Notes: a model not told the origin generated them from the letters alone. A DNA stretch of 64,000 nt from Patescibacteria group bacterium (GCA_045541795.1 JAZQJV010000018.1:197134-261133); one strand, 5' to 3'; counted from the stretch's first letter, positions 1,545-60,562 are shown. A program made the numbers and translations.

Positions 1545-1586
1545 TATATTATATCACAATATGTCAGTTTTGTCAAGAGGCAAATT
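1545..1586 (-). promoter_or_regulatory. Extended promoter motif copy overlapping the last codons and stop of murB
   Basis: The minus-strand sequence AATTTGCCTCTTGACAAAACTGACATATTGTGATATAAT simultaneously encodes the murB C-terminus N-L-P-L-D-K-T-D-I-L-stop. Confidence 0.45.
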
Positions 1587-2504
1587 GTCACGGCTCAAAT
1601 CTTCCCGGTAAATCACCACTTCTGGCCGCAACCACACGCCGTATTCATGATAGACGCAGGCCTGGATTTTGCGGGCGCACTCTAGGATGTCAGCCTGGGC
1701 TGCGGTGCCTTTATTGACGATAAAACTGCAATGTTTGCCGGTGGCAGCCAGGCAGCCTGTCCAATCTAAGTGTAATTGGTCAATCAAAAATCCAGCGGGG
1801 ATGAGGGCTTGCTTCGCAAATTGAGGAAACCTTGACTGCAGATCGGGTGTATTGGGCGGATTTTGCCAAAAACAACCAGCGCTTGGCTCACTGAAGGCTT
1901 GAGTTTGCCGTTTTTTGGCCATCAAGGCTCTGGCCTGACGCGCTAGTAAATCAGGATCAGCGCCTGGTGTGACTTTGAGCCAGACGTTGGTAATGACGAG
2001 AGCGGGATTTTTTTGCAGTCGAGAATAGTCATAGGCAAAATCTAGTTCGTCTGCGCTCAAACACAAAAACTCACCCCGATCTCGGTCAAAAACTTCGATT
2101 TTCTCCACGAACGCACCAATCAGGATACCGCCAGCGTGAGCATTCCCCCAGACAGCGCCGCCCACACTTCCCGGCAGCGTGGTAAAGTTTTCTAGGTTTT
2201 TCCAGCCGTTTTTGACTGCCTGCCAGGCTACCTGCGCTATCATGTCGCCGGCCCAGATTTTTACGCCCGTGCCGATCAAAGTAAGCGGCTCGCCAGACGG
2301 CATCATTTTCCAGACTAGAGGAATTTCGCCGTCTGGCAGGAGGCTATCGCTGCCCCCGCCCAAAATCAAGACTTTATCCTGACCGGCAAATTTTTGCGCT
2401 GTAATCAAGTCCTCGCGCGTGCGGATTTCCCAAAAACTAGACGCTATCCCTCCCACTTTGATACTGGTGTACGGGGCTAATGATACGTTTTTTCTCTCGC
2501 TCAT
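1554..2504 (-). CDS. murB: UDP-N-acetylenolpyruvoylglucosamine reductase
   Basis: FAD-binding N-terminus (LAPYTSIKVGG, LILGGGSDSLL) and MurB C-terminal domain. Internal ATG at 2504 chosen as start; the ORF extends to 2624. Confidence 0.85.
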   Translation of the reverse strand: MSERKNVSLAPYTSIKVGGIASSFWEIRTREDLITAQKFAGQDKVLILGGGSDSLLPDGEIPLVWKMMPSGEPLTLIGTGVKIWAGDMIAQVAWQAVKNGWKNLENFTTLPGSVGGAVWGNAHAGGILIGAFVEKIEVFDRDRGEFLCLSADELDFAYDYSRLQKNPALVITNVWLKVTPGADPDLLARQARALMAKKRQTQAFSEPSAGCFWQNPPNTPDLQSRFPQFAKQALIPAGFLIDQLHLDWTGCLAATGKHCSFIVNKGTAAQADILECARKIQACVYHEYGVWLRPEVVIYREDLSRDNLPLDKTDIL

Positions 2505-2574
2505 GCGGCCGATTATACCATAAAATTGCCAAAACTGCCAACCAAAACCCGTTTTTTTCTGGTATAATATAGCA

Positions 2575-3000
2575 GTGATAACGGTAAACCTATTTGTTAA
2601 CTCGCATTTCTTAGTCGACCGCAAAATGCTCCGGCAGCGGACGATAGATTTTTTGGCGGCTCACACTCTGGAAAACGCAATCGTCGACGTCCATGTAGTC
2701 GGCTCACACAAAATCAAGCAGCTCAACGAGCAAATTGGTCACGAGGGTGTGACTGACGTGCTGTCATTCCCGCAATACGACCCCAAAGAAAAGGATTTTA
2801 CCCTGCCGCCCGGCGTGCCGCGCCACCTCGGAGACATCGTGATCAATTACGCAGAAGCGGTCAATCAAGCCCGTAAACGGGGGAAAATGGTGGATGAGCA
2901 AGTCTGGTTTTATCTTGAACACGGCCTGCTGCACTTACTAGGCTTTCATCATGATGACGGTATGGAGGAAACTTATGTTCGCCCCCCGCTGGACTTATAA
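2575..3000 (+). CDS. ybeY: rRNA maturation endoribonuclease YbeY
   Basis: H..LHLLGFHHDD metal-binding motif (HGLLHLLGFHH) and length of about 140 aa. Confidence 0.75.
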   Translation: MITVNLFVNSHFLVDRKMLRQRTIDFLAAHTLENAIVDVHVVGSHKIKQLNEQIGHEGVTDVLSFPQYDPKEKDFTLPPGVPRHLGDIVINYAEAVNQARKRGKMVDEQVWFYLEHGLLHLLGFHHDDGMEETYVRPPLDL

Positions 3001-4045
3001 AAGTCATTTTAGCCTGCTCCAGTGGTTGGGGCTGCTGGCCAGCCTGACGATAATATCTGCTTTGATCGTGTGTTGGCAGATAAGCTCGACTTACCGCAGT
3101 TTTTTGCAGCAAAGCGGACTTTCTGGTGATCAGCTGTGGTCACTGATACGCCAAGCCGCGCTCACAAGCACCCTCAACCAAGACGGCCAGACGAGCCTCT
3201 TACTTCTGGGGACAGACGAGCTCGAGACGCGCCCGGGTAATTGGCCGCTTACAGACACCATGATGCTGATCAAAGCTCAGCCTGAGTTTAGCAACATCAC
3301 TCTGCTTTCGCTGCCGCGCGACTTAGTCTTGCCCGGGGACAAAAACAGAATTAACGCGATATATCCCATATTTTATCAAGAATCAACTCAAACGGCTGGG
3401 CTGGCGACTGCTCAGTATTTATCCAGCCGGCTGGATATACCCATCCATTATCAGGTAGTAGTCACGATGCGTGACGTCGCTGATTTCATTGATCTGGTGG
3501 GCGGGGTGGACGTGGAAATTGCCCGTTCGTTTATTGATTACCAGTATCCACGTGACGACGTGGACGTCACCACGGTGCGCGATCCCCAGCTGCTTTATGA
3601 GACGGTGGAATTTACTGCCGGCCCGGCGCATTTAGATGGGCCGACGGCGCTCAAATTTATGCGCTCGCGCCACGCTCAAAATGAAGAAGGCTCTGATTTT
3701 GCCCGCGCGACGCGTCAGCGGCAAGTCATTGAAGCGCTCGCCAGCAAACTTGGCGCGCGCTTTCGTGATGATCTGCGCCGTTATGATTTGCGCTTACTGG
3801 GTGAGTGTTACCAATTTTACAATGATCGTTTTGCTGATCAATTACCATTTACACACGCACTCGCACTGGCTTTAGACTTTCTCTCGCGTGAACGGCTACC
3901 ACAAGTATCCAGTGGACGCTTGAGCGTCGATGAGCCTGGCAGCGTCTTACATGAAAACAAGCGCGATTTCACGATTCAAGCAGACAGTCTGGAGGCACTG
4001 CGCGCGGCCGTGCGTCGTGAGCTTAAGTGGGGCAGTGGCGAGTAA
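2951..4045 (+). CDS. LytR-CpsA-Psr (LCP) family cell-envelope polymer transferase
   Basis: N-terminal TM helix, then LLLLGTDE..R...DTMML, LSLPRD, GGVDV and FMRSRHA...G.D..R..RQRQV motifs typical of the LCP domain. Confidence 0.75.
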   Translation: MMTVWRKLMFAPRWTYKSHFSLLQWLGLLASLTIISALIVCWQISSTYRSFLQQSGLSGDQLWSLIRQAALTSTLNQDGQTSLLLLGTDELETRPGNWPLTDTMMLIKAQPEFSNITLLSLPRDLVLPGDKNRINAIYPIFYQESTQTAGLATAQYLSSRLDIPIHYQVVVTMRDVADFIDLVGGVDVEIARSFIDYQYPRDDVDVTTVRDPQLLYETVEFTAGPAHLDGPTALKFMRSRHAQNEEGSDFARATRQRQVIEALASKLGARFRDDLRRYDLRLLGECYQFYNDRFADQLPFTHALALALDFLSRERLPQVSSGRLSVDEPGSVLHENKRDFTIQADSLEALRAAVRRELKWGSGE

Positions 4046-7846: not shown

Positions 7847-7978
7847 CTTTCATTTTGTGTGGCACGAAATGCTACACGTGTGGCATTACTTTTCATTTTT
7901 CGCCTGGTAAATATATCATAAACTGTGTGGCACTGGCGTAATAGCGTGTGGCATTTTGAGCACAAAATGTGTACAATC
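7847..7978. repeat. Direct repeat copy 1 (about 130 bp) containing four GTGTGGCA(C/T)T iteron-like units
   Basis: Near-identical to 10079-10230. Internal 8-mers GTGTGGCA repeat four times. Confidence 0.8.
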
Positions 7979-8298: not shown

Positions 8299-9564
8299 AT
8301 GAAAGGCAGTATGCGCACTGTTTATGGGCGGATCTTTTTGGTGGCCACATTGGTAACGTTGGCAAACTTTCCCCCTAAGATAGGGGAAACAGGCGGGCTC
8401 GAAGAGCCCAACCTAAGGGAGTATGAATATAAGCAAGCAACCGTCTACGCTGCTACGTCCACCCTTACGACCAAAAAGATTAAAGACGTGCAGCTGGGTG
8501 AAGTCATCCAGATCGGCAGCAGTAAGTTTGTAAAAATCGCCGCCAACCGCTATCAAGCAGTAAAACCGTATACTTGTGCTGACCCGGTACTCACGTATGC
8601 TGGCGCTAGCAAAGGTTTCACTTATACGGGAAACTATCAGACCTTTACGGCGTACGCCGGGTGTCAGTATCAGGTAGAGTTGTGGGGAGCAAGAGGCGGA
8701 AACAGTAGAAATAATGGTGGCACAACTTACGTGGGTGGATATGGAGGCTATGTGAGCGGTACAATCATGATGAATACAAGGATGAATTTTTACGTATACA
8801 TAGGTGGCCAAGGAACGAATACAGATACTGGGGGTTGGAATGGCGGCGGCTACTTGACTGGTGGGCAAAGTTCTTTCGGTGGCAGCGGAGGCGGCGCTAG
8901 TGACATTAGGACCATATCCGGATCTTGGAATAATGATAATTCTCTGTGTAGTCGTATAATGGTGGCTGGCGCCGGCGGTGGTGGTGACGCTCGTGCCGAA
9001 GGATATGGTGACGGTAAGGGTGGCGACGGTGGAGGATTGTACGGAATACGCGGGCAGGCTATCAATCATACTAATGGCTATGGCTATTGTCAATCTTCTG
9101 GGGGAACACAAGTATCTGGTGGACAGCAAATGTGTTATGGTGAAATAATGTCTGATGATAAAGCAATAGGCTATTTTGGTGCAGCCTGCCAAAATCCGGA
9201 CAATTCAGATGCGTGGGCGCAAAGTGGCGGAGGCTCTGGATGGTATGGAGGTAGTGCTTCTAATCATTCTGGCGCTGGCGGCGGTTCCTCTTACATCTCC
9301 GGCCATACCGGCTGCGTCGCTGTTACCTCACAAAGCGACACTACTCCCAAATCGGGCTGTACTACCGGCACTACTAATTACCCTTGCTCACTTAGTCCTA
9401 CAGGATTGAGTTTTACTGACACCGTAATGATCGACGGCGCTGGTTATTCCTGGACAAATGTGAAAGGATCGCTCAAGCAAATGCCCAATCCGTCAGGCGG
9501 TTACTACGCCAGTGGCGTAGGCCATACCGGTAATGGTGCCGCCCGCATCACGCGCCTTAATTAG
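8299..9564 (+). CDS. Secreted glycine-rich domain protein (ALK/LTK-type Gly_rich-like)
   Basis: N-terminal hydrophobic signal/anchor. Repeated blocks NFYVYIGGQG, GGSGGGASDIRT and RIMVAGAGGGG resemble the glycine-rich domain family. Strong TTGACA-N17-TATAAT promoter at 7985-8012 with a 290-nt leader. Confidence 0.6.
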   Translation: MKGSMRTVYGRIFLVATLVTLANFPPKIGETGGLEEPNLREYEYKQATVYAATSTLTTKKIKDVQLGEVIQIGSSKFVKIAANRYQAVKPYTCADPVLTYAGASKGFTYTGNYQTFTAYAGCQYQVELWGARGGNSRNNGGTTYVGGYGGYVSGTIMMNTRMNFYVYIGGQGTNTDTGGWNGGGYLTGGQSSFGGSGGGASDIRTISGSWNNDNSLCSRIMVAGAGGGGDARAEGYGDGKGGDGGGLYGIRGQAINHTNGYGYCQSSGGTQVSGGQQMCYGEIMSDDKAIGYFGAACQNPDNSDAWAQSGGGSGWYGGSASNHSGAGGGSSYISGHTGCVAVTSQSDTTPKSGCTTGTTNYPCSLSPTGLSFTDTVMIDGAGYSWTNVKGSLKQMPNPSGGYYASGVGHTGNGAARITRLN

Positions 9565-10078: not shown

Positions 10079-10230
10079 AACTTTTTTGTGTAGCACGAAA
10101 TGCCACACGTGTGGCATTACTTTTCATTTTTCGCCTGGTAAATATATCATAAACTGTGTGGCATTTTGCGCCTTTTGTGTGGCACTGGCGCAGTAGCGTG
10201 TGGCATTTTGAGCACAAAATGTGTACAATC
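10079..10230. repeat. Direct repeat copy 2 (about 150 bp) with five GTGTGGCA(C/T)T units
   Basis: Same sequence as 7847-7978 with one extra iteron unit (gtgtggcattttgcgcctttt). Confidence 0.8.
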
Positions 10231-15293: not shown

Positions 15294-15333
15294 AAAATTG
15301 CCTCTTGACAAAAAGCCCATAATGTGGTATAAT
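15294..15333 (+). promoter_or_regulatory. Extended promoter motif AAATTGCCTCTTGACAAAA-N-TGGTATAAT
   Basis: TTGACA at 15305-15310, 17-bp spacer, TATAAT at 15328-15333, with conserved upstream AAATTGCCTC. Confidence 0.6.
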
Positions 15334-15492
15334 AAACGTAGTTTACCTTGAACTACCGTTCTTTAACAGCCAAAACAGGATCGAAAATAGATCATCAACG
15401 CGGCTACCCACCAGAGGTAGTCACAAAAAACACGTCGTGACCTATAAGGTCACCACAATTATAAATTAGTCACTAATAATTAATAATCTTAA

Positions 15493-15873
15493 TTATTCTT
15501 GAGAAAAATGCGCTAAGGGATCTAAAAGTCGCCGCCAAGCTGTATCCGGGCTTTCTTCCTCTGTCACAAACTCGGGCACACCGCCTGGCACGTATTCAAA
15601 AGTCGCCAAATCCAAATTACCTTCACCTGGATTTTTGTATAAATTAGTATCCCGGATCAGTTTTTCCTGATTGAGCGGCTCGCCGGCCAAGTCGAGCTCA
15701 CTTTGACGCTGCAAAAGTTGCAGCTGGAGCTTTTCTTTTTCGCGCTGGCTCGCCAGCACCGCCTGATGTGTGGCCTGTTGTCTTTGTCCACTTACCTGCA
15801 GTGAACCCAAAAAACTGCCGGCCAGAAGGAGAATGAAAACAGTGATCAGGATGCGCGGCAGCATTTTTTTCAT
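15493..15873 (-). CDS. Hypothetical TM plus coiled-coil protein, possibly FtsB/DivIC-like septum formation initiator
   Basis: N-terminal TM (ILITVFILLLAGSFLG) followed by a Q/L-rich coiled coil. Confidence 0.35.
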   Translation of the reverse strand: MKKMLPRILITVFILLLAGSFLGSLQVSGQRQQATHQAVLASQREKEKLQLQLLQRQSELDLAGEPLNQEKLIRDTNLYKNPGEGNLDLATFEYVPGGVPEFVTEEESPDTAWRRLLDPLAHFSQE

Positions 15874-15904
15874 ATAGTATTTATTATAGAGAAAGAGAGA
15901 ACTT

Positions 15905-16777
15905 ATGTCAAATCTTACAGTCCAAGATGGAGAAAAACTTTTTAATGATTATTTAACGGCCAGCGGTAAGGCCCATGCTACTATTATCGCTTATTCAAAA
16001 GACATCGAGCAGTTGACGGAATTTCTGCTCGGTCGGGGTAAAACTCAAATGGAAGCCGTCGGTGTTGATGATCTGGAGGCCTATAAGGAATATCTGGGCA
16101 AGGTTTACCGCTCGGATAAAACGGTGTCCCGCAAAGTCAATTCCGTGAAGTCTTATTTCCGCTATCTATCGGATAATCACTACATCCCGGATAATCCTTC
16201 ACGCTTGGTGGCTCAGCCCCAGTGTGAACAGACTCCGCCTCGAGTACTCAGTAAAACCGAGTACCGCGCTTTGCGTGATGCCTGCCGGGGTGACGTCCGG
16301 ATGCTGGCAGTGGTAGAAACCCTGCTGCAGACCGGGATGCGTATCAGCGAGCTGGCCAACCTCAAACTTGATGACCTCGACTTTGACCGCGGTGTGATCA
16401 ACATCGAGACCGAAGACACGCATCTCAATCGTAAGGTGCCGCTCAATGAGACCGCGAAGAAAACACTTCAGGCTTACCTGAAAGTCCGCCCGCGCGCGCG
16501 CGAAAAGACCGTTTTCTTGACCAAGACCTGTAAACCATTTTTGGTACGCAATATCCGTAAGTCCCTGGATCGGTATTTCCGGCTGGCGGGCTTGGGTGCT
16601 GGGGTCAAGGTCAATGACCTGCGTCACACCTTTATCGTCGAGCAGTTGCGCGCCGGTTTACCAATGGTCTATGTCTCGCAGATCGTGGGTCACAAACGCC
16701 TCACGACCACGGAAAAATACTTAGCTTTCGTCAAGATTCCTGAGTATGATGCCAACATCAAAATTGAGACCCTGTAA
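15905..16777 (+). CDS. Tyrosine site-specific recombinase (XerC/XerD family)
   Basis: Catalytic R (GMRISE), DLRHTF box and HKRLTTTEKYL box II with the Tyr nucleophile. Confidence 0.8.
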   Translation: MSNLTVQDGEKLFNDYLTASGKAHATIIAYSKDIEQLTEFLLGRGKTQMEAVGVDDLEAYKEYLGKVYRSDKTVSRKVNSVKSYFRYLSDNHYIPDNPSRLVAQPQCEQTPPRVLSKTEYRALRDACRGDVRMLAVVETLLQTGMRISELANLKLDDLDFDRGVINIETEDTHLNRKVPLNETAKKTLQAYLKVRPRAREKTVFLTKTCKPFLVRNIRKSLDRYFRLAGLGAGVKVNDLRHTFIVEQLRAGLPMVYVSQIVGHKRLTTTEKYLAFVKIPEYDANIKIETL

Positions 16778-21048: not shown

Positions 21049-21114
21049 ACATCCTCAAATTGCCTGCGCATTTGTCCCAAAACCGTGTTATAATACATAC
21101 TGTTCTTAAAAAAT

Positions 21115-21306: not shown

Positions 21307-22878
21307 CTCATGACTGTCTGGATCATTTTTGCCGCCGCTTGGGTCTGGCTCAGCCGCGCTCATGCCTTTAGCTTCAATTTCCACGACGAGACTGATCACG
21401 TGGCCGTGGGCTATTTCCTCTATCGTGATCACCTGCGCCTTTACCAAGATCTCATTACGATCCATCAGCCGCTACCAGTGCTAGTGGGCGGCCTGTTTGC
21501 GCTGCTAGTGCCTCACGCCACACTGTATGCTTTTATTTCCCGGCTGCGTCTGCTGATGGCTTTATTTTGGGCTGGTGCAGGCACCGTCCTGGTTTGGCGC
21601 TTTCGCGCCCGGGGGCTTGTCGCCAGTGTCATCACCTGTTTGCACGCCTTCCCATATTTTGGTTTTTTTGTCTTGGCCGAATCCCTCGTCTGGCCAGCAG
21701 TCGCTTATCTGATCCTAGCGATCGCTGAGCAGTGGTGGCCACCAGCTACTGCGGCCCGGCTGCAGCGCCCGCAAGACAGTATCATCTGGGGTGCGCTTTG
21801 CGGTTGGTTGATTTTTAATCTCTTGCCGCTGGCGCCGTTTATCATTGCGGCTACCATTATCTATGCCTGGCCTCGCCGCCAGGCCTGGCGGCGGGAAGTG
21901 TTGCTCGTTTTTGGCGGCTTTTTACTAGTGGCACTGCCCATCTTTTTACTAGTCAGCCCTGTCTCTTGGTTTCGCCAAACCATCGTCAACTTCACTCAGT
22001 ACTGGTCGGCAGACATCCAGTCGTCAGCGCCGGCGGCGCTCACTCATCTCGGCCTCTGGCTCACTTATCCCTTGGTATCGGGATTTATCAGCTATCGCTC
22101 ACCCAGTCTCCTCATTTGGGCGGTCTTGATCATCTACCCGCTGATAATTTCTTATACCCACTCACGCCAGCAAGGCCTGCGCGTGACACTGCTGTATGTA
22201 CTCGTCGTCTTGCTCAATAACCGCGTCAATACTCCGGCCGCCACTCTGTATGAAGGCTTTCATTTATTGCCGTATTTGGCCGGTCTGGCGGCCTTTAGTG
22301 CCGCTGTCTGGTGCGAGCTCTGGCCGCGTGCCACCCGCCGCATCCGCGCCGACGTCATCGTTTTGTCGCTTGTCGCCTCCGGCATTGTCGGCGCCTGGCT
22401 GATCCAAGGTGATGACCGCCAAGCCAAATATGAGATCTTATTTTTGCCGGAGCAGTCACTCATTAATGTCATCAATATCCTCAAAAAACCCGGCGATCGG
22501 CTCCTCACCGGCGAGGAAGGCTATGGTTACCTCAATCTGCTCACGGGTATTCCTTTTGCCGACCGGCAAAACTTTCACCTCTACTGGTCTTGGCGCTCGC
22601 CCGAATTGCGCCAGGATTTCCTCGATACCTTTGCCAAGCGCCCACCAGCCTTCGTCTACTTCCCCAATCACACCGGCCGCGGTATGCCGGATCTACTGCA
22701 TGAGACGATTCTCCCAAGCTTTTACGTGAGCATCACCAATCCCGGCGGTACACCGAGCGATCTTTTTTATCGCGCAGATTTGGCCGCCAGCCTCTCGGCC
22801 GCAGTGCGCGCTGATCTGGCCGCCACTTACTATGCTCTTGCGGCTGCCTCCAGCGCCAGCCAGCTGGCTGCCGACTAA
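21307..22878 (+). CDS. Polytopic membrane protein (about 12 TM), possibly GT-C-fold glycosyltransferase-like
   Basis: Many TM helices then a C-terminal soluble region. The ORF opens at 21202, but the 5-prime 100 nt contains direct repeats, so the ATG at 21307 is the more likely start. Confidence 0.5.
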   Translation, partial: LMTVWIIFAAAWVWLSRAHAFSFNFHDETDHVAVGYFLYRDHLRLYQDLITIHQPLPVLVGGLFALLVPHATLYAFISRLRLLMALFWAGAGTVLVWRFRARGLVASVITCLHAFPYFGFFVLAESLVWPAVAYLILAIAEQWWPPATAARLQRPQDSIIWGALCGWLIFNLLPLAPFIIAATIIYAWPRRQAWRREVLLVFGGFLLVALPIFLLVSPVSWFRQTIVNFTQYWSADIQSSAPAALTHLGLWLTYPLVSGFISYRSPSLLIWAVLIIYPLIISYTHSRQQGLRVTLLYVLVVLLNNRVNTPAATLYEGFHLLPYLAGLAAFSAAVWCELWPRATRRIRADVIVLSLVASGIVGAWLIQGDDRQAKYEILFLPEQSLINVINILKKPGDRLLTGEEGYGYLNLLTGIPFADRQNFHLYWSWRSPELRQDFLDTFAKRPPAFVYFPNHTGRGMPDLLHETILPSFYVSITNPGGTPSDLFYRADLAASLSAAVRADLAATYYALAAASSASQLAAD

Positions 22879-23062
22879 AATTGCCCCTTGCAAAATCTAA
22901 TTGCCGTGCTATAATATCGATGTTGGATTAAATGCGCCACCCCGGCGCTGCCAGTTTTACTGGTTCCCACAAGCGACGCCGGTCCTCCTCCATGCCGGCG
23001 TTTCGCTTTTTGCGGCAATTTGCTGGTAAATTTCCGCCAAAATCTGATATAATACAGCGTAT

Positions 23063-39828: not shown

Positions 39829-39868
39829 AAAATTGCCTCTTGACAAAACCGCCAAAATATGATATAAT
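39829..39868 (+). promoter_or_regulatory. Extended promoter motif AAAATTGCCTCTTGACAAAA-N-TATGATATAAT
   Basis: -35 at 39840-39845, -10 at 39863-39868, spacing 17. Confidence 0.6.
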
Positions 39869-39985
39869 AGGATTTCGTTTGATCGGCTATACTCAGGCAG
39901 TGGACGTCGGTCATGCTCTTTGAGAGGTGATTGACAAATGTGAAATAGCTGACAGACAAAATCTATCATAAAGAGGTGGAGCGTA

Positions 39986-40501
39986 ATGTTAGCGTACTCA
40001 AAACCCAGCAATGGGAAAGTACAGTGGTATCAGGACGAGACCGGTAGGATCATGAATCCGGTGGATCCTGACGACATGACGAAGGGCTTGAGATTTTACG
40101 AGGTTTTGCCCCACCCAACACAAGGTAACCCCGTAATCTATCAGGCGACAGGAGGAGAAGTTTTCCTCACGGTTATCGTCGGCCCCATGCTCATCGTCTG
40201 TGAACCGGAAACGGTTTACGGCGAAAACATGGACGTTGTCGGGCAGTTTCGTGTGGTACGGCGGAGTTTGGATAATCCAGACACCATCGTGCCGGCTGAC
40301 AAAACCTTCCTGGGAGAGGTTTATGCCAATTCCCAGAGAATTGTTGGAGCGCCGGAAAGGCTCTATCTGGTACGGCTGGCAAGCCCACCGGACGGTAAGT
40401 TTGTCTTCCGGACTGTCCGCGAAGTAATCCAGAGTCGGGACGGCTTCGGTATTGTCGCCGTGGCCAAAGCGCTGGAGCTTGGTTTACTTGAACTTAAGTG
40501 A
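39986..40501 (+). CDS. Hypothetical protein (171 aa)
   Basis: Intact ORF with promoter, 115-nt leader and a strong terminator at 40576-40599. Confidence 0.45.
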   Translation: MLAYSKPSNGKVQWYQDETGRIMNPVDPDDMTKGLRFYEVLPHPTQGNPVIYQATGGEVFLTVIVGPMLIVCEPETVYGENMDVVGQFRVVRRSLDNPDTIVPADKTFLGEVYANSQRIVGAPERLYLVRLASPPDGKFVFRTVREVIQSRDGFGIVAVAKALELGLLELK

Positions 40502-43046: not shown

Positions 43047-43204
43047 AACAATACGAGCGAGTATACCACAAAATTGACGAGTAAAAACAAGCAAAATTGA
43101 CGCAGTTTTTGCGGAAATAATCAGACCGTCAAAATCCTCAGTCATAATTAGCAGAAAAAGCACAATTTTGCTAAAACTGCCCCCGATTTTTTCATCACGC
43201 CTGG

Positions 43205-43243
43205 AAATTGCCTCTTGACAAATTAGCAGTCATCTGCTAGAAT
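43205..43243 (+). promoter_or_regulatory. Extended promoter motif (AAATTGCCTCTTGACA-N17-TAGAAT) upstream of dnaK
   Basis: -35 at 43215-43220, -10 at 43238-43243. A second promoter TTGACC-N17-TACAAT lies at 43284-43312. Confidence 0.55.
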
Positions 43244-43249
43244 TGCTAA
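43223..43249 (+). promoter_or_regulatory. CIRCE-like inverted repeat (HrcA operator candidate) inside the dnaK promoter spacer
   Basis: TTAGCAGTC-N9-AATTGCTAA against the CIRCE consensus TTAGCACTC-N9-GAGTGCTAA: left arm matches 8 of 9, right arm 6 of 9. Confidence 0.45.
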
Positions 43250-45457: not shown

Positions 45458-46414
45458 TTAGGCATTGTCTAAGATCTGTTTGATGATTGCTGCCACCGTC
45501 GGCACGCTCACGCTATTGCCCAGCATGGCATAAAGCTGTGCCTCCCGCAAACTTCCCGGCAGCACAAATGACTCCGGCAGGCCCTGCAACCGGGCGCACT
45601 CCCGAGGTGTGAGCTGGCGTACGCCCTTTTTGTCCACGATAAAGGGCACATTATAGCCGCCCTGGCCCATTGACGCTAGCAGCGTAGGACACACCGGTTC
45701 TGGCGCCGCCCGCAAATAGTAACGCCGCCAAGTATAAATGACCCCGCGCTCCAGTTTTTCGGCCTTGATTTTAGCCGCCACTTTGCCGCCCCGCAAATAA
45801 AAATGCGGCTCTACCCGGTCACTGAGAATACTGGCAAAACTAATCAAATTATTCGTCGCCAGCGGGAAACTAAATTCCCGCGCGCGGGCAGCATCGGCAT
45901 AAGCCACCAGGTATAGCCGTTCTCGGTTTTGCGGCAAACCACAAATATCCCTGGCATTGAGGACCGCATACACGGGGTAATAGCCCGCCGCGGCTAGATG
46001 TTCGAGCATCACCCCAAAAGTCCGCCCACCATCATGCCGCAGCAAATGAGCGACGTTTTCCAAAAGCACCACCGGCGGCCGCACTCTCTCTACCACTTCC
46101 ATCAGCCGAAAAAATAATTGCCCCGCTCCGTCCGGATCGCTAAAGCCTTTTTTGCGCCCAGCCCGGGAAAAAGGCTGACACGGGAAGCCTGCCGTCAGCA
46201 GCTGGAAGTCAAGCTCCTCCAATCGGCGCACCAATTGTTCATCAGTGATGTCTGCCTGTACGCATTCAGTCGGGAAATTTGCCTGGTAAGTCGTCAGGCA
46301 AGCCACATCCCGGTCGCTAGCAAAAATCGGCTCCACGCCCACCATCTGCCCGGCCAGACTAAATCCGCCAATGCCACAAAACAAATCCACCATTTTCCAG
46401 TTTGTCATTATCAT
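45458..46414 (-). CDS. DNA (cytosine-5)-methyltransferase
   Basis: Motif I DLFCGIGGF, motif IV GFPCQPFSRAG, motif VI ENV and motif VIII present. No restriction endonuclease gene adjacent. Confidence 0.8.
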   Translation of the reverse strand: MIMTNWKMVDLFCGIGGFSLAGQMVGVEPIFASDRDVACLTTYQANFPTECVQADITDEQLVRRLEELDFQLLTAGFPCQPFSRAGRKKGFSDPDGAGQLFFRLMEVVERVRPPVVLLENVAHLLRHDGGRTFGVMLEHLAAAGYYPVYAVLNARDICGLPQNRERLYLVAYADAARAREFSFPLATNNLISFASILSDRVEPHFYLRGGKVAAKIKAEKLERGVIYTWRRYYLRAAPEPVCPTLLASMGQGGYNVPFIVDKKGVRQLTPRECARLQGLPESFVLPGSLREAQLYAMLGNSVSVPTVAAIIKQILDNA

Positions 46415-46432
46415 ATTTTACCATATCCCGCA

Positions 46433-46470
46433 AGTTGCCTCTTGACAAAATGACCTATATGTGATATAAT
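46433..46470 (+). promoter_or_regulatory. Extended promoter motif (AAGTTGCCTCTTGACAAAA-N-TGTGATATAAT)
   Basis: -35 at 46443-46448, -10 at 46465-46470, spacing 16. Confidence 0.6.
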
Positions 46471-46565
46471 AAGTTATATTTGGCTCGCGCGCTGATCAAA
46501 ACTGGTCCGCAAAAGTCGGGTCAGCTCTTTGACAGCAAACGAGTAATTTTAAGGAGGTTTTTACT

Positions 46566-47366
46566 TTGGAATTCTGTTTAGTGTTAATGGGCGGTTTGTT
46601 GGCTTTGGTGGGCTTTGGAGCGGTCATCTTTGCGATGTACGCGTTTCTTCAGCCTGGTGGCGGCCCTACGGGGACGATTCTTAATCTAGTAGGTCTGGCA
46701 TTGTTGGTGGCTGCTTTCATGTGTCTGGCCGTACCGGCTGACGCGGCGGTGTCGGAAATGGATTCGGTCTGGAAGACAATTTCAGGAGATTTCGAAGAAA
46801 TCTCCCCAGATGTGAAGCCATTAGTCAGCCTAGACGTGGAGCAACAGTTCCGTAACCTGGCGGAAGCATTGATCCAGGAAAAAGAAATCAAGATTGATTA
46901 CAATTTTGGCAGACAACTGGTGCATCAGACGCTGCCAGAACCGGTCATTATGCCAGCCAAGAAAAGCGTGAACACGCACGCCGACCCCAATAATCCCAGG
47001 CACGTGGAATTTTTAGCGATTGTCATCTATCAAGAGGTCGGCAGTAACTGCTGGGATGACGAATCCCACTTCATGGTGGCCGACATCGTGCTCAATCGTG
47101 TTGAGGACGAAAGATTTCCCGACACAATTCACGAGGTCCTGACGGCCAGAAACCAATTTGGCCGCTTCCACTGGACAGGAGTCGTCTGGCCGCCCAAACA
47201 CAAGCATCCGGTGGAGCAGCAGGAAGTCGCCCGCTGCAAAGATATTGCCAGACGTGCGCTCTCAGGAGAGCACTCGCATATCTACGGTAAAGGGTACGTC
47301 TGGATGGCGAAATTTCGCCAGGGGCGCGATCACATCCGGAAAGCCAACATGTGGTTCGCCCGCTGA
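46566..47366 (+). CDS. Membrane-anchored SleB-like cell-wall hydrolase (Hydrolase_2 domain)
   Basis: Two N-terminal TM helices. C-terminal VEFLAIVIYQEVGS...FMVADIVLNRVEDERFPDTIHEVL...QF matches the SleB/CwlJ catalytic domain pattern. Terminator at 47401-47422. Confidence 0.55.
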   Translation: MEFCLVLMGGLLALVGFGAVIFAMYAFLQPGGGPTGTILNLVGLALLVAAFMCLAVPADAAVSEMDSVWKTISGDFEEISPDVKPLVSLDVEQQFRNLAEALIQEKEIKIDYNFGRQLVHQTLPEPVIMPAKKSVNTHADPNNPRHVEFLAIVIYQEVGSNCWDDESHFMVADIVLNRVEDERFPDTIHEVLTARNQFGRFHWTGVVWPPKHKHPVEQQEVARCKDIARRALSGEHSHIYGKGYVWMAKFRQGRDHIRKANMWFAR

Positions 47367-47423: not shown

Positions 47424-47462
47424 AAATTGCCTCTTGACAAAATGACCAAAGTATGCTATAAT
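47424..47462 (+). promoter_or_regulatory. Extended promoter motif (AAAATTGCCTCTTGACAAAA-N-TGCTATAAT)
   Basis: -35 at 47434-47439, -10 at 47457-47462, spacing 17. Confidence 0.6.
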
Positions 47463-47470
47463 AATATATT

Positions 47471-47830
47471 ATGAATACTTTTGATTTAGAGCTGCGCGTG
47501 GGAGGACATGAATACCTCGCTCGTTTTGAGGATAATCCCGCCAGCCGCAAGCTCAAAAGCGGCGTGCCTTGGAAGCTCGAAATGGCTGACCTCGACCGAC
47601 TCGAAAAATACTGCTATCTGGAAGACGTGACGTTTCCCACTGATGCTCGCCGCCCAGACATAATTAAGGCCGGCCAGCTCTACCTTTTTGAGGAAAACTG
47701 CTTGGTGCTTTTCCTGGAAGACTGCCGCAGCACCTATCGCTACACTTATCTCGGGGAAATTATTGATCCGGTCAAACTCAAAGATTATGCCGGCACCAGT
47801 CAGTGTATCGTCGAAATCCGCAAGCGCTAA
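47471..47830 (+). CDS. Hypothetical protein (119 aa)
   Basis: Intact ORF 9 nt downstream of a strong promoter; no recognised motif. Confidence 0.4.
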   Translation: MNTFDLELRVGGHEYLARFEDNPASRKLKSGVPWKLEMADLDRLEKYCYLEDVTFPTDARRPDIIKAGQLYLFEENCLVLFLEDCRSTYRYTYLGEIIDPVKLKDYAGTSQCIVEIRKR

Positions 47831-55557: not shown

Positions 55558-56289
55558 TTACCAGTCCCAGGCACGAGATGTCGTGCCAGTTTTCTGATAT
55601 GTGTCTTCCGGCTCAGCTTCAGCAGGTGTCGGTTGACGATCCAGAAGGCTGTCGCGAAACTGGGTGGTAGACTGATCAGCTCGAGCGGGCGTACCAATCC
55701 TTTCGGCGCCGCCAAAAAGCACCGCTTTTTCCTCGCTCGTCACCAGATCCACGTCATCCAAGTCATCACCAGGCAGATCATCGCCGGCATGAGCGTTGGC
55801 CACCGCATCTATGACTTCCTTATAGTCAGGATGCGCACCGTCGTATTCTGCCTGACATGCCGCTTCCTGAGCCTGCACGGACATGCGGGTGATGGTAATA
55901 TGAAATCCCAGCGGCGTCACCTCTACCGGCACCACCGCAAAAAGCCTCCCCACCTCATTGAGCCTGCTCGTAAAAATAGAGCACACTGCCGTCGGTATTT
56001 CTGGCCAGACTGTCTCCAGGAACTTATCCCGGATGCTTTCCATGTCAATGATTTTACTGAGTATCTCCGGGCGAGATACCGTACCTTCCTGACCATTGAC
56101 TGCAAACGTATCTCTGCGCCGACTGACCAAAAAATCTGTCAGCCCAAACTCGCACATCTGATTGATGCAGACGTCCACGATCTGCGCCGCCGTCATTGTA
56201 GACGTCACCGGGTAAGTGCCCACTAATTCCTGTGCCTCAAGGAGTCTGCAAGCTACCTCACGCAAGTCATCTGACTTTGTCATTACCAT
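55558..56289 (-). CDS. Hypothetical acidic protein (243 aa)
   Basis: Intact ORF driven by the extended promoter at 56328-56370. Confidence 0.45.
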   Translation of the reverse strand: MVMTKSDDLREVACRLLEAQELVGTYPVTSTMTAAQIVDVCINQMCEFGLTDFLVSRRRDTFAVNGQEGTVSRPEILSKIIDMESIRDKFLETVWPEIPTAVCSIFTSRLNEVGRLFAVVPVEVTPLGFHITITRMSVQAQEAACQAEYDGAHPDYKEVIDAVANAHAGDDLPGDDLDDVDLVTSEEKAVLFGGAERIGTPARADQSTTQFRDSLLDRQPTPAEAEPEDTYQKTGTTSRAWDW

Positions 56290-56327: not shown

Positions 56328-56370
56328 ATATTATATCACACTTTATTAATTTTGTCAAGAGGCAATTTTA
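56328..56370 (-). promoter_or_regulatory. Extended promoter motif (AAAATTGCCTCTTGACAAAA-N-TGTGATATAAT) on minus strand
   Basis: -35 is the reverse complement of 56353-56358 and -10 the reverse complement of 56330-56335, spacing 17. Confidence 0.6.
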
Positions 56371-56548
56371 CCTGGTAAATAGGCATAATTTCGTAATTGA
56401 TGTATTTTACAGACAATTATAAAAACTGACAAATTACCACTTTTTCGTACACCCGAGCAAGCAAAAGCCAAAATCCGTACGCACTGATACATAAAATTGG
56501 TCAAAAATTGCTGGGTAAATTTAAAATTATAACTGCTAAAATAGTGCT

Positions 56549-56779
56549 ATGACAAAAAAAATCTCCATGTGTACAACAATTACTCTCTTGGTTTTGGCCC
56601 TGGCTACGACCGCCTCCACGCACTCACTGACCCCAAAAAAATCGCTGCGCCCCGGGCAAACTCCAGTCAAAAAAACGACACTTACCAGGCACACTCGCCA
56701 CAGCCTAGAAAAGTTGGAAGTGACACCAGAGCCGGCAGTAAGCATTAGTAATGACAATTTGCGTGCCGCCAGCGAGTAA
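56549..56779 (+). CDS. Small secreted protein (76 aa) with signal peptide, hypothetical
   Basis: MTKKISMCTTITLLVLALATTAST signal-like N-terminus. Located in the 5-prime region of the giant surface-protein gene. Confidence 0.3.
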   Translation: MTKKISMCTTITLLVLALATTASTHSLTPKKSLRPGQTPVKKTTLTRHTRHSLEKLEVTPEPAVSISNDNLRAASE

Positions 56780-56823
56780 TTTGGAGTAAAAAAAAGTTTG
56801 AAGAAGATTTAAATAAAGGACAC

Positions 56824-59800
56824 ATGAAAACGAAATTTAGCCAATTATTACTAAAAATTAGCCCCCTGATGCTGGTTTGCTGCCTCACGCTGCTGTCTGT
56901 CAGCCGCGCGCAGGCCAAAATGTGTTCTTTTAGCGTGGAGGAAGGCGCTACACCCGCTGTCGCCGATAGACGGCTTTATTGGTACAAGAGCGAAAAAGGC
57001 CTCCCGGATGAATACATCCATGACTATGAGCTGACTTATCTCGGGGAAAATGATCCCTGCCCTACGGCCGAATACGACGGCGAGTCAGGACGCATCTTAA
57101 TGAGACCCGACGAAAATTACGCTCCCATGGATCTACTCATACCAGCCCTGGCCGCTCTTGAAGCCCAAGATGCCGACGGTAATCATACCGAATCCCGTGG
57201 TCAGGAGTGGCCGTGGAAGGATTCTGGCACCTACGTGCGCATCGAAGGGCTCTATGACCAAAGTGTCATCCCTTGCGGTACGGCCGTCGGCGACCAGTGT
57301 GACTGGGACTGGGGTATCAATAAAATCACTTATACTTACAAAGGCACTTACAAAGTCGATGCCCAATACGAAATGATGGTGCAGTTGACCAATACCAGCG
57401 GCTACGCCGGGCCAAATTTTTACATCGACAGCTATGACCAAGCTGCCAAAACCATCACCATGTCTCCCGACTGGCGTGGCAGTGAGCACTACTATACCAA
57501 TCCTCACTACGCCCTGGGTGCGCTTTCTGGCGCCTACAAGTACTTAACGGCGCACGACTACTCGGCACAAGGCGAAGTCACCTTTATTCTCGATACCGCC
57601 TATTCATACCCTTACGTACCGATCAAATCCATTACCTACAAAGACGGCAAGCTTAGTAGTGACGTTTTTGTCAGTAGTGTCAGCAATGTCAAGACGATTA
57701 GCTTTGATGAGTTTGACTATGACGGCTACTCGCCAGTGACACGTGTCGCCAGTTATAATCCCGGCTCAATTCCTACCTACTACTACGACCAATCAGTTTA
57801 CCCATACGTCCGCCGCACACTCACTCTCCAAGCCGCCACCAATTCAAGCCTCGAGGCTGCCACCGGTTTGATGGCCATCATGTATGACATTTATGGCAAC
57901 AACACCCCAGCCGAGATTTACTTCACTGGCGAAAGCTTCGCCAAAGCCACCATGAGCATTGTTGGCCAAGAAACATATTACGCCTATCACTTCCCCGATG
58001 ACAGCACTATTAACGGCACCGATATCTTCAATCTCTCTGCCCTCCACCAGGTAGATGCTACCCATTACACGGCTGTCTTTAATGATCAAGCCACACTAGA
58101 TGAAGGCATGATTTTTGCCTTGATGAATCAAGGAAAAGTGTTTGACATCACTTTTGAAGATCCGGCCATGCCTGGCACATTAAATTTTGAAGATGGCGCA
58201 TTTACCTTAAGTTTCGCCGATGCTGAGCTGGCTGGCAGCGATCTCGCGGCAAAAATCACCTCGCTCGAGGCCATTCTCAATGGTGAAAAGATGCAGCCCG
58301 ACCAAACCGCAGTCGACGTTTACGAGCTCGCCAACGACTGGCTGATCAATGTCGACGGATCCGACATCACCTATTTAAATTTCTACCTCGAGACGCCCTA
58401 TTTTGGCCGGCTCATGACGATTGATCTCGAGGACGAATCAATAAATGTCGACTATACTGACTATGTACTTGCCCCAGGTACTTCTGCCAGCGATGCTGCC
58501 ATTATCTACATGCAACTGATTGGTCAATATCTGGACGATGAACCAGAAACATTTGACGATAAAGGCGTCGCCGCCGACTCTATCGACGAACCTATCAACC
58601 GGATTTATTACGACGCGGACTCCGCGCGTACGAAGGCGATCCTCATGGGTAATTCCACCTTTGCTGACGGGCTTAATATCGCCTCGCTCATCACAAACGG
58701 CGTCGAGGTCAACTACCAAGTCGGCCACCCGCTCTCCATCATCACCCATGTCTATGACGAATTTGACGTCATCCTCAGTGAAAACGCCACCCAAGCCTGG
58801 CTGCGGGAGCACTTAGCCGAGCTTACCGGTTTCCCCGGCATCGGCGTGTACACTGGTGACGTCATGGATGGCCCCGTCCACCAGCTTGGTGACATTCTTT
58901 TTGCCGGCACGGATGAGCAAGGCAACCTCGCCCTTGATTATTACGCCTCAGACGAAATTGATGTCTACATTGACCAGGCGGAAAGTAGTATCATTCATGA
59001 CGCCAGCGCCAGCAGCGAAGCGGCTTTAGTCAAAGAAGTCGGCCTCGTGGCAGATCTAGTCGCGCATCTTGGCCTTGACGAGCAAGTAAATATCACGGTC
59101 GGCACTACCCCAGGCGCCGCTGTAGCCACCATTGACGCTCTCCAAGGCAAAGCCGCCAGCGGACAAATTGTCCTCCACGTCACTGATCATACCGGCACTT
59201 ACGGCACTTTCTCCGTCCTGCAGATGCCCGAGCTGCAAGAGCAAACCAGCTCCTGTGGCCGTGACGGCGTCCCATACTGCGCTCACCCAGACACTTACGC
59301 CGGCAAAACGCTCATTTTTACCAATGATCTTGCACCCGCCACCATCCAGCAGCTGGCCGCTAGCGTCCACTCAGATAAAAATTACTTAGTGATGGCGCAG
59401 TCTACCAGCCAACCGGCGCAGACCGCCTCCCTCTGGAGCAAGCTCATCAAGCAGGCCTATGCCGCCAGTACCAATTACTATCTGCTCGAGTATGACGCCA
59501 GCAATCAGCTTCAATCCCTTGGCGTCACCACTCTTGACGACTCCATGCAAGCCATCATTGACAGCTGGCGTCAAGTTGCCGGTGACTTTACCCTGCGCTT
59601 GCTAAACGAGCAGGCCATCAGCGAAGCTACCCTCATTTACCTGGCCACCACCAGTGACACCGCTTTTGCCGATGTCATCAACTACGTGGCCACAAACGCC
59701 GCCGACGGCCTCAATGCCGAGATCTACGGCCAAGACTTTGCCATCCTCGTGATCGCCGGTAAAGTGACTCAGGTCAATTTCACCGAAACGACTACAAGAG

Positions 59801-60435
59801 AAGAGGTCGAAGCCGCCATTGCCGGTACTAAGGGGCAGTTTACCGTCAATTTTGGTTCCGTCACCATGCTTGCCAGAGATGGCGTCCTTTTTGAGATCAA
59901 AACGATCTCTCTTGAGCCAGGATTAAGCGCCCCGCAAAGCCGCAATGTGCCCAGCAATGCCCGCCCGCAAGGCTGCGATGCGTCTATCCCTGTGGGCAAG
60001 GCAGATCTTTTCCAGATCGACCGCCAGGCGGACAAAGCCACGCTCTATTTCACGCCCGTGCGTGACAACACCGATCGTTACCACGTGATGTTTGGCTACG
60101 CCGAAGGCGATGAACGCTTCTCTGGTGTCGCCCTCCAAGTGACCGCCGAGCAAAACAACGGTGTCTTGGCGCTTGACATCACCAATCTTGACCCACGCCA
60201 GGTCTATTCCTTCAAAGTCGCACCTGTGCACGAGTGTGCCGTAGGAGTGTGGTCCAATTGGCTGACAGCTGCACCCACCAGCGCCTCACGAGTCACGCAT
60301 ACCTACCGCTACTACTCTCAAGAGACTAAGCCTGCTGCCTACCAGCCCGCCTCAAGCACTACAGTCGAGAGCCCTACTCAGCGCACCACCCAAATCGTCA
60401 CCGCTAAATACTCTCAGGTGACCCGCAAAAAATAA
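56824..60435 (+). CDS. Giant secreted/surface protein (1203 aa) with C-terminal FN3-like module
   Basis: Signal peptide, acidic repetitive body, then a C-terminal 170-aa module shared with the downstream paralog (LDITNLDPRQVYSFKVAPVHECAVGVWSNW, FN3-like). Terminator at 60463-60486. Confidence 0.7.
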   Translation: MKTKFSQLLLKISPLMLVCCLTLLSVSRAQAKMCSFSVEEGATPAVADRRLYWYKSEKGLPDEYIHDYELTYLGENDPCPTAEYDGESGRILMRPDENYAPMDLLIPALAALEAQDADGNHTESRGQEWPWKDSGTYVRIEGLYDQSVIPCGTAVGDQCDWDWGINKITYTYKGTYKVDAQYEMMVQLTNTSGYAGPNFYIDSYDQAAKTITMSPDWRGSEHYYTNPHYALGALSGAYKYLTAHDYSAQGEVTFILDTAYSYPYVPIKSITYKDGKLSSDVFVSSVSNVKTISFDEFDYDGYSPVTRVASYNPGSIPTYYYDQSVYPYVRRTLTLQAATNSSLEAATGLMAIMYDIYGNNTPAEIYFTGESFAKATMSIVGQETYYAYHFPDDSTINGTDIFNLSALHQVDATHYTAVFNDQATLDEGMIFALMNQGKVFDITFEDPAMPGTLNFEDGAFTLSFADAELAGSDLAAKITSLEAILNGEKMQPDQTAVDVYELANDWLINVDGSDITYLNFYLETPYFGRLMTIDLEDESINVDYTDYVLAPGTSASDAAIIYMQLIGQYLDDEPETFDDKGVAADSIDEPINRIYYDADSARTKAILMGNSTFADGLNIASLITNGVEVNYQVGHPLSIITHVYDEFDVILSENATQAWLREHLAELTGFPGIGVYTGDVMDGPVHQLGDILFAGTDEQGNLALDYYASDEIDVYIDQAESSIIHDASASSEAALVKEVGLVADLVAHLGLDEQVNITVGTTPGAAVATIDALQGKAASGQIVLHVTDHTGTYGTFSVLQMPELQEQTSSCGRDGVPYCAHPDTYAGKTLIFTNDLAPATIQQLAASVHSDKNYLVMAQSTSQPAQTASLWSKLIKQAYAASTNYYLLEYDASNQLQSLGVTTLDDSMQAIIDSWRQVAGDFTLRLLNEQAISEATLIYLATTSDTAFADVINYVATNAADGLNAEIYGQDFAILVIAGKVTQVNFTETTTREEVEAAIAGTKGQFTVNFGSVTMLARDGVLFEIKTISLEPGLSAPQSRNVPSNARPQGCDASIPVGKADLFQIDRQADKATLYFTPVRDNTDRYHVMFGYAEGDERFSGVALQVTAEQNNGVLALDITNLDPRQVYSFKVAPVHECAVGVWSNWLTAAPTSASRVTHTYRYYSQETKPAAYQPASSTTVESPTQRTTQIVTAKYSQVTRKK

Positions 60436-60519
60436 TTACCAACCACCTAAGCAGCATCTCCAATCAGTCCTTCGGGACTGATTTTGCATCTGCCCGACTT
60501 TAAAAGATCAAATATAATT

Positions 60520-60562
60520 ATATTATAACATACTTTATCAAATTTGTCAAGAGGCAATTTTT
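60520..60562 (-). promoter_or_regulatory. Extended promoter motif copy (minus orientation) between the two giant paralogs
   Basis: About 85% identical to the 56328-56370 copy. Points antisense into the 3-prime end of the upstream giant gene. Confidence 0.45.

Follow-up and report, generated by a model that had tools for sequence, protein, structure and literature searches.

A 40 bp promoter-like cassette recurs throughout a 64,000-nucleotide stretch of DNA from a Patescibacteria group bacterium (GCA_045541795.1, JAZQJV010000018.1:197134-261133; the whole of this stretch is called the window below). It joins a full -35 hexamer and a TRTG-extended -10 hexamer to ten extra conserved bases upstream, and it is likely to be the consensus strong housekeeping promoter, of the sigma-70/sigma-A type, of a narrow clade of gut Patescibacteria. 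A previous reading made from the sequence alone (the sequence-only reading) had recorded nine copies, seven in front of genes in the expected orientation and two in unexpected contexts, and had proposed that the upstream block was a site for a global regulator or an alternative sigma domain and that the two misfitting copies might produce regulatory antisense RNAs.

Results and discussion

The window was searched for AAATTGCCTCTTGACAAAA with up to three mismatches, which gave ten matches where 0.01 was expected from shuffled sequences. All nine recorded copies were recovered with no or one mismatch (own-strand positions 1568-1586(-), 15295(+), 35370-35388(-), 39830(+), 43205(+), 46432(+), 47424(+), 56350-56368(-) and 60542-60560(-)), and the tenth, at 30689(+), is a degenerate copy with three. 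The spacer is 17 bp in all ten, and the -10 hexamer is TATAAT except at dnaK, where it is TAGAAT; nine copies match the two hexamers at 12/12 positions and the dnaK copy at 11/12. The TG at -15/-14 is present in nine, the degenerate copy being the one that lacks it.

Two checks independent of the block were made. A perfect TTGACA-N17-TATAAT occurs at ten places in the window, nine of which carry the block (two mismatches or fewer). The exact octamer ATTGCCTC occurs seven times in the window, each time ahead of TTGACA-N17-TA(T/G)AAT. Weaker versions of the block precede other window promoters, at 35401-35439(+), at 26242(+) and upstream of tRNA-Phe (21057) and tRNA-Arg (22878). The block is thus present at promoters with a poor -35 hexamer, one tRNA promoter having no recognisable -35. 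The copies at 35349-35388(-) and 35401-35439(+) form an inverted repeat of each other. The positions are collected in Table 1.

Table 1 Cassette copies and related promoter features in the window (cassette copies span -45 to -6; ORF, open reading frame, is used in the text; aa, amino acids)
Feature	Position	Strand	Context
Cassette copy, block AATTTGCCTC	1547-1586	-	Overlaps last 11 murB codons and stop
Cassette copy	15295-15334	+	Faces 126-aa gene 15493-15873(-), then tyrosine recombinase gene 15905-16777(+)
tRNA-Phe upstream promoter: block-like AAATTGCCTG, poor -35 (CGCATT), TGTTATAAT	21057-21095	+	
Block-like AAATTGCCCC with TTGCAA-N16-TATAAT	22878-22915	+	~150 nt upstream of tRNA-Arg
Degenerate tenth copy, AAATTGACCC TTGACA N17 TATAAT, no TG	30689-30728	+	Just 3' of the template repeat of a diversity-generating retroelement (DGR)
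Cassette copy	35349-35388	-	Ahead of TM2/zinc-ribbon gene 34829-35272(-); second, weaker promoter at 35327
CCTGG/CCAGG accessory element	35391-35395	.	At -52 to -48 of minus-strand cassette 35349-35388
Divergent degenerate copy, CAATTGAGGC TTGACA N17 TAAAAT	35401-35439	+	Ahead of ABC transporter genes starting at 35459
Cassette copy	39830-39869	+	110 nt upstream of hypothetical 171-aa gene 39986-40501
dnaK promoter: CCTGG (43200-43204), block, TTGACA, TAGAAT	43200-43244	+	CIRCE-like operator (controlling inverted repeat of chaperone expression) 43223-43249 fills spacer and -10
Cassette copy, AAGTTGCCTC	46432-46471	+	Ahead of cell-wall hydrolase gene 46566-47366
Cassette copy	47424-47463	+	Ahead of cyclophilin-like gene 47471-47830; ATG 7 nt past -10
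Cassette copy with CCAGG (56371-56375)	56329-56375	-	Ahead of acidic 243-aa gene 55558-56289; divergent from giant gene 1
Cassette copy between two giant genes	60521-60560	-	Directed toward terminator hairpin (~60462-60487) and 3' end of giant gene 1 (56824-60435)

A logo was drawn from 62 distinct copies, taken from the window and three related genomes (four genomes in all). The conserved unit reads AAATTGCCTC-TTGACA-AAA-N9-TRTGn-TATAAT-A, 40 bp from -45 to -6, with the block AAATTGCCTC at -45 to -36, the AAA at -29 to -27 and the last A at -6. Its edges are sharp, with more than 1.3 bits inside and less than 0.3 bits at -46 and past -6. The block holds 1.3-1.9 bits per position, a value that is partly due to ascertainment, the block having been a selection criterion. 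Positions that were not selected are also near-fixed: A-29 (62/62), A-28 (60/62), A or T at -27, T-17 and R-16 (61/62 each), T-15 and G-14 (60/62 each) and A-6 (54/62). The upstream ten bases are a discrete conserved word, as the sequence-only reading held, and not AT-rich drift; they are kept at orthologous promoters whose flanks are beyond alignment, as well as at the poor -35 promoters.

Upstream of the block, the region from -57 to -46 is GC-rich and holds little information. In 25 of the 62 copies (~40%), against 2% expected, the sequence CCWGG is found with its first base precisely at -52 (11 copies, CCAGGC-N) or -50 (14 copies, GCCTGG); genome-wide it shows no enrichment or depletion. 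Where it is present, the surroundings of the A-tract form a short imperfect palindrome, GGAAATTGCC or GGC-N6-GCC. Two families of spacer recur at non-orthologous loci, AAAAGCCYATAATRTGR and AAAnTGACAT..TRTGA.

For six of the ten window copies a co-oriented ORF follows at a distance of 1-110 nt (the exceptions being those at 1586, 15295, 30689 and 60560), and a co-oriented ORF is found at leader distance behind most of the 50 copies scored in relatives. The genes behind the cassettes of the window and its relatives include dnaK and those for the TM2/zinc-ribbon protein, the cell-wall hydrolase, the cyclophilin-like protein, a response regulator, glycosyltransferases, tRNAs and many small secreted proteins; by our own reading of the sequences, an S15-like ribosomal protein, a synthetase resembling methionyl-tRNA synthetase and a protein resembling penicillin-binding proteins can be added. 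As these genes have no common function, the cassette appears to be a general strong promoter rather than the mark of a regulon.

In about 12 of the 60 scored copies (10 of the 50 from relatives) the ORF starts only 0-13 nt from the predicted start site. This implies leaderless transcripts, and many cassette mRNAs, that of the cyclophilin-like gene among them, are predicted to be of this kind. Start codons 0-13 nt past predicted start sites were seen in the window at 47463-47473, 2504-2512, 15873-15883 and 60634-60650 and at many loci of relatives, and leaderless mRNAs appear to be common in the clade.

Several other features of the leaders were recorded. A boxA-like sequence, GTTCTT(T)AA(C/G)A, lies 15-30 nt past predicted cassette starts at 15360-15372, at 21100-21112 (in the tRNA-Phe leader) and at three further loci, at none of which an rRNA gene comes next. 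The occurrence of GTTCTTTAA after several cassettes had suggested the boxA of an rRNA-operon leader, a candidate that was dropped when no rRNA was found at nine loci of relatives. At five loci of CAYQLH and RGIG2556, two of the related genomes, the cassette is directly followed by a common leader, (T/C)ACTTCGCTACCA, and then a hairpin. The last bases of this leader resemble a tRNA acceptor end (GCUACCA), and the window has no copy of the leader. The promoter of coaE (window 25424-26260; our locus L016 of RGIG2556, 2419-3355) apparently lies beyond tRNA genes on the opposite strand, so that the leader would be antisense to the tRNA(s); in RGIG2556 a cassette is present at the promoter position.

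The block closely resembles the corresponding part of the rrnB P1 promoter of E. coli MG1655, AAATTTCCTC-TTGTCA, to which it is identical at 9/10 positions (14/16 with the hexamer) and which has the same position. Both are found in strong promoters and consist of an A/T tract at about -45 to -41 followed by CCTC and a TTGNCA hexamer. The UP element of rrnB P1 is reportedly a binding site for the C-terminal domain of the RNA polymerase alpha subunit, as Ross et al. in 1993 and Estrem et al. in 1998 are said to have found. The two promoters differ in other respects. The distal UP region (-47 to -57) of the cassette is GC-rich, often with CCWGG, whereas that of rrnB P1 is A/T-rich; the cassette has a 17 bp spacer with an extended -10 where rrnB P1 has 16 bp; and its discriminator is A/T-rich, that of rrnB P1 being GC-rich. 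In addition, the word is near-invariant across dozens of promoters of the cassette and is not confined to rRNA operons, and a contact with the alpha C-terminal domain is one that we infer.

The whole cassette would be read by RNA polymerase holoenzyme, with sigma regions 4, 3 and 2 on the -35, TRTG and -10 elements respectively. The upstream block would combine a promoter-proximal UP-like subsite with a 'tc' flank of the -35, as in rrnB P1: its A/T part would most likely be touched by the alpha C-terminal domain beside sigma region 4, and its CTC would be the weak 'tc' flank reportedly described by Hawley and McClure. The RpoD of RGIG2556 is 79% identical to that of E. coli in region 2 and 65% in region 4, and the region 4.2 helix VTRERIRQIE is identical, so nothing unusual is needed for reading the -35.

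Viral contigs (IMG/VR) were scanned with three AAATT[G/T/C]CCTCTTGACAAA patterns and with permuted blocks of the same composition. The patterns AAATTGCCTCTTGACAAA, AAATTTCCTCTTGACAAA and AAATTCCCTCTTGACAAA were found at 30, 48 and 39 loci, and the three permuted controls at 9, 1 and 2. The junction AAATTNCCTC-TTGACA is thus 3-48 times commoner in phage contigs than the controls. Most of the real matches have a -10 at 17 bp and the contigs range from 28 to 62% GC, suggesting that this junction is a widely used strong-promoter context.

The remainder of the cassette has known counterparts. Voskuil and Chambliss are said to have described, in 1998, a TRTG extended -10 (the '-16 region') in Gram-positive sigma-A promoters, and these, like the 'full consensus' promoter selected in vitro, share with the cassette TTGACA, the 17 bp spacer, TRTGn and TATAAT. 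Gram-positive promoters rarely have all of these together, whereas a large set of cassettes matches every one of them and ten upstream positions besides. Thermotoga maritima, which also has a small genome, has sigma-70 promoters closer to consensus than those of E. coli, with a median of 10.2 bits and an extended -10 plus -35 at the most active genes (Latif et al. 2013, PMC3636130). Unlike these, the cassette adds a fixed 10 bp upstream word and conserved spacer positions, and holds far more information per site. What is unusual about the cassette is its degree of fixation.

The block is thus best regarded as a basal UP-like or extended -35 element because of its fixed position, the unrelated genes downstream, the canonical RpoD, the likeness to rrnB P1 and the enrichment in phage contigs. 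The global regulator or alternative sigma domain of the sequence-only reading is not supported by these data or is unnecessary: the block abuts a canonical -35 at a fixed position ahead of unrelated genes, and the -35 would be met by an E. coli-type helix in the RpoD of a clade member.

The distribution of the cassette was examined in other genomes. Gene content places the host in the Patescibacteria, or candidate phyla radiation (CPR), as indicated by the domain families DUF4012, DUF3048 and LytR and a DGR with a Fib_succ_major target. Its best named homologues are in Pacebacteria, Woesebacteria and 'Patescibacteria group' for DnaK (76-78%) and in Woesebacteria for MurB (34%). A cross-genome scan for ATTGCCTCTTGACA-N17-TATAAT with one genome per species gave at least 107 loci. 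Among the matches listed, many copies each were found in three unclassified metagenome-assembled genomes, RGIG2556 and RGIG2560, both from goat jejunum, and CAYQLH, whose proteins are 44-98% identical to those of the window. Each of the remaining listed matches was a singleton; most belonged to Chloroflexota and Clostridia, and a few to Lentisphaeria/Victivallales. A deep phylogenetic signal was considered for these and rejected. About 57 chance matches would be expected by our estimate, which assumes 185,579 genomes with ~20 perfect promoters each; the singletons were set aside because chance among perfect promoters could give that number, and the controlled comparison with viral contigs was preferred. 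Perfect promoters are few, and an invariant block is lacking, in two relatives at a greater distance (DnaK 82-84% identical, 39-40% GC). The stereotyped cassette therefore seems confined to a narrow, roughly 50%-GC clade of gut Patescibacteria.

Comparison of orthologous loci suggested that the cassette is under selection. At dnaK, GCCTGG-AAATTGCCTC-TTGACA and the CIRCE-like operator are kept in four genomes with unalignable flanks, CCWGG is conserved in five, and an outgroup with 84% DnaK identity keeps CCTGGgAAAATTGatgC-TTGACA. Over ~45 bp, the recombinase-leader cassettes of the window and RGIG2560 differ at a single base, apart from a 1-nt indel at the upstream edge, while the neighbouring 126-aa protein is only 32% identical and the flanks are unalignable. 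A cassette precedes the cyclophilin-like gene in RGIG2556 as well as in the window; the block and hexamers are kept, and the two spacers differ at the variable positions. The promoter upstream of tRNA-Gln/Thr is a perfect cassette in RGIG2556 and a decayed one in the window, and the site past murB differs among the relatives examined; these changes between genomes look like decay and not clean insertion. Since the cassette is kept where its flanks cannot be aligned, purifying selection ahead of many unrelated genes is favoured, and the pattern would be that of a constrained functional site with turnover rather than a transposing element.

Two further observations concern the dnaK promoter. The CIRCE-like HrcA operator (43223-43249, TTAGCAGTC-N9-AATTGCTAA) lies over the spacer and -10 and is kept in five related genomes, and in JAFRKH (our locus L158, ~1310-1360) a second full cassette stands in tandem ~100 bp upstream.

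A number of points weigh against a simple promoter. The cassette holds ~55 bits in total (partly inflated by the way the copies were collected), far above the need for ~100-200 sites in a ~1-Mb genome, and an excess of information classically hints at a second binding protein or at copying. The two recurrent spacer families at non-orthologous loci would not be explained by simple RNA polymerase contacts, and the position-specific CCWGG likewise has no explanation. Against the proximal UP subsite consensus for E. coli, AAAAAARNR at -46 to -38 from systematic evolution of ligands by exponential enrichment (SELEX), AAATTGCCT matches only at the first three A's, and the distal subsite (-57 to -47) is GC-rich here, not A/T-rich; 'UP element' is therefore an analogy and not a demonstrated identity. 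No tblastn match to rpoA was obtained in the clade DNA examined, and the promoter activity and start sites are predictions from sequence.

The CCWGG, the spacer families and the information excess therefore leave a small probability for a second binding factor. In one form of this idea the block, with CCWGG, is the operator of a dedicated protein, a global class-II-type activator or repressor that would sit near -42 and touch sigma region 4. This has some attractions in addition to the information excess: where CCTGG stands at -50, GGAAATTGCC (-47 to -38) forms an 8/10 palindrome centred at -42.5, where CCAGGC stands at -52, the A-tract lies between the arms of GGC-N6-GCC, CCWGG is confined to these two positions and retained at dnaK, and the block occurs at some promoters without a -35. 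A dyad test, however, found only the short 8/10 palindrome, in the CCWGG-bearing subset, and no functionally coherent regulon. CCWGG is lacking in 60% of copies, making the palindrome dispensable; presence at nine of ten perfect window promoters is the behaviour of a basal element; no candidate regulator gene is linked; and a clade-specific factor would not account for the presence of this word in E. coli rrnB P1 and in the phages of many hosts. We regard such an operator as improbable. Improbable too is a combined proposal in which a clade-specific factor or an unusual alpha C-terminal domain reads GG-AAATT-GCC/CCWGG, perhaps in a manner that depends on methylation by a conserved C5-cytosine methyltransferase encoded beside dnaK, and the perfectly preserved orphan copies are kept for antisense RNAs (to murC, the recombinase-adjacent gene and the giant gene). 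If true, this would explain the information excess and the recurring spacer families. The other source of such an excess, copying, would make the cassette a dispersed repeat, either a small mobile element that brings a promoter with it or a sequence kept uniform by gene conversion, with the murB and giant-gene copies as recent insertions. The sharp edges at -45 and -6, the identical spacer variants at non-orthologous loci in all four genomes, the murB C-terminal codons and stop that come from one copy, the ~16% of copies that face a convergent ORF and the 56350/60542 pair, which is demonstrably a duplication, are all in keeping with this. The Correia elements of Neisseria are promoter-carrying dispersed repeats of this sort, which resemble the cassette in being short and multi-copy, with an outward-firing -35/-10, and in at times overlapping gene ends or lying antisense. 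Unlike them, the cassette has no terminal inverted repeats or target-site duplications common to its copies (only idiosyncratic inverted repeats were found, around eight copies), its positions are kept between genomes (dnaK, the recombinase leader and the cyclophilin-like gene, across genomes differing by 7-50% in protein) and graded degenerate versions occur at weaker promoters. Moreover, no transposase is associated, the spacers of orthologues drift while the block and hexamers stay, which is the pattern of selection, and the sole clear duplication took a whole gene unit and not the 40 bp element by itself. A dispersed repeat is thus also improbable, and the consensus housekeeping promoter remains the preferred explanation.

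A C5-cytosine DNA methyltransferase gene (45458-46414(-)) is convergent with dnaK and has the same position in SRR33322312. CCWGG, a Dcm-type site, may be relevant to this enzyme, being present at -52 or -50 in 40% of the cassettes.

The copies in odd contexts were considered individually. As to orientation, the sequence-only reading was borne out for six of its seven regular copies. The exception is the copy at 15295, which is antisense and faces the 3' end of the convergent 126-aa gene; the gene behind it had been called holA-like, but the next co-oriented gene, 564 nt away, encodes a tyrosine recombinase (Pfam Phage_integrase, E = 6.6e-29). This layout is kept in RGIG2560, the copy being part of a conserved convergent arrangement. 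The recombinase is 98.7% identical to that of RGIG2556, where MurB is only 44% and MurC 74% identical, which suggests recent horizontal transfer or a mobile gene.

The murB-embedded copy and that beside giant gene 1 had both been described correctly. The copy at 60521-60560(-) is 88% identical over 68 bp to that at 56329-56368(-), a match that takes in eight of the nine variable spacer positions and ~20 transcribed nt. A second, weak block of similarity connects the regions just upstream of the plus-strand starts of the giant genes, and giant genes 1 and 2 are paralogues that share 78.5% identity in a 386 bp stretch of the 3' end. Tandem duplication of 'divergent promoter region + giant gene' gives exactly the observed order, and the 60542 copy is a by-product of this event, yet intact. 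An ORF of ~76 codons with a signal-peptide-like start (56549-56780(+)) lies upstream of giant gene 1, and the region of its start is weakly similar to the start of giant gene 2.

The copy at 1547-1586 encodes the last 11 residues of MurB, DNLPLDKTDIL, and also provides the murB stop codon, the TGA in TGTGATATAAT. Its predicted start, ~1540, is 11 nt beyond the stop codon of the convergent murC (1529), in a gap of 24 bp. Misassembly of the junction was considered and rejected, as two independent Joint Genome Institute (JGI) assemblies have the same arrangement. In the relatives murB is not beside murC: a promoter and co-oriented gene directly follow it in RGIG2556 (a ParE toxin pair) and SRR33322312 (GH18), and in CAYQLH a convergent gene lies past murB with no promoter there. 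The embedded cassette is absent from three more distant relatives examined. This copy is thus probably the orphan of a rearrangement that removed the downstream gene and left its promoter. The 'murC' frame (3-1529(+); our locus L248, 3476-5951) runs upstream into a second set of Mur-ligase domains, and the JGI gene call there gives a product of >862 aa with two Mur_ligase_M/C sets, suggesting that 'murC' is a fused double Mur ligase.

Behind the 30689 copy the plus strand has no ORF reaching 100 aa before the convergent gene at 31217. The adjacent DGR (26405-30655) is complete, with a reverse transcriptase gene (28974-30227, Pfam RVT_1) and a template repeat (30483-30652). The variable repeat (27591-27760), which lies at the 3' end of the Fib_succ_major gene, has 90% identity to this template, and the differences inspected in the alignment are at template adenines.

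The odd-context copies are, in our view, mainly historical accidents, left over from duplication and rearrangement. Those at 1547-1586 and 60521-60560 have perfect consensus and would probably fire, and with ~16% of the cassettes of the four genomes facing a convergent ORF, some antisense transcription is likely. That the orphans (1547-1586, 15295-15334, 60521-60560 and perhaps 30689-30728) are kept for functional antisense or small RNAs, directed at murC, at the 126-aa gene or recombinase and at the giant surface-protein gene, is a separate proposal, compatible with the housekeeping promoter, which we consider possible but on balance unlikely. The orphans retain 12/12 hexamers and, apart from 30689, the TG, and are expected to be strong; the layout of cassette, convergent gene and recombinase is kept in RGIG2560; and in relatives, too, there are several cassettes with a long convergent ORF ahead of them. 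Over their first 140 nt, the predicted RNAs from 60514 and 15341 fold better than shuffled sequences (z = -3.5 and -4.5). In the predicted 60514 RNA, the complement of the giant-gene terminator hairpin is accompanied by another hairpin, of 15 pairs with about four G-U pairs by manual pairing, which would be more stable on this strand. Part of this folding signal, however, comes from the shared terminator hairpin of the opposite gene, and the RNAs from 1540 and 30735 are no better folded than shuffled sequences (z = -0.6 and -0.9). For none of the orphans was a terminator identifiable downstream, the murB copy is missing from the distant relatives and the 60542 copy has a sufficient historical explanation. 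Two other candidates were rejected: Rfam gave only tRNAs behind the orphans, both at gathering thresholds and at E up to 0.5, and the only small ORFs there were frames of 17-36 codons without ribosome-binding sites. Antisense RNAs are not needed to explain the odd copies.

Elsewhere in the window, two intergenic segments, 7853-7978 and 10084-10230, are 96-98% identical and lie on both sides of a gene for a glycine-rich protein (8299-9564). A hairpin and a number of GTGTGGCA repeats, which may form an operator array, are present in each.

Conclusions

Promoter and start-site data for CPR bacteria are almost nonexistent, and a full-text literature search on the sequence word and on CPR/Saccharibacteria promoters found nothing relevant. 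The cassette is a known kind of element, a sigma-70 promoter with a UP-like block and an extended -10, in a lineage without described promoters, and by itself it reveals no new regulatory mechanism. As a native strong promoter of 40 bp it could be used as a part in the emerging genetics of CPR organisms. It could also aid annotation, by marking operon starts, leaderless genes, small genes and non-coding RNAs, and it is a possible marker for linking phages or contigs to the clade. The findings suggest that the rrnB P1-type junction, AAATTNCCTC-TTGACA, is in use far beyond the Proteobacteria, and that a reduced genome can drive much of its transcription from a single near-optimal promoter sequence.

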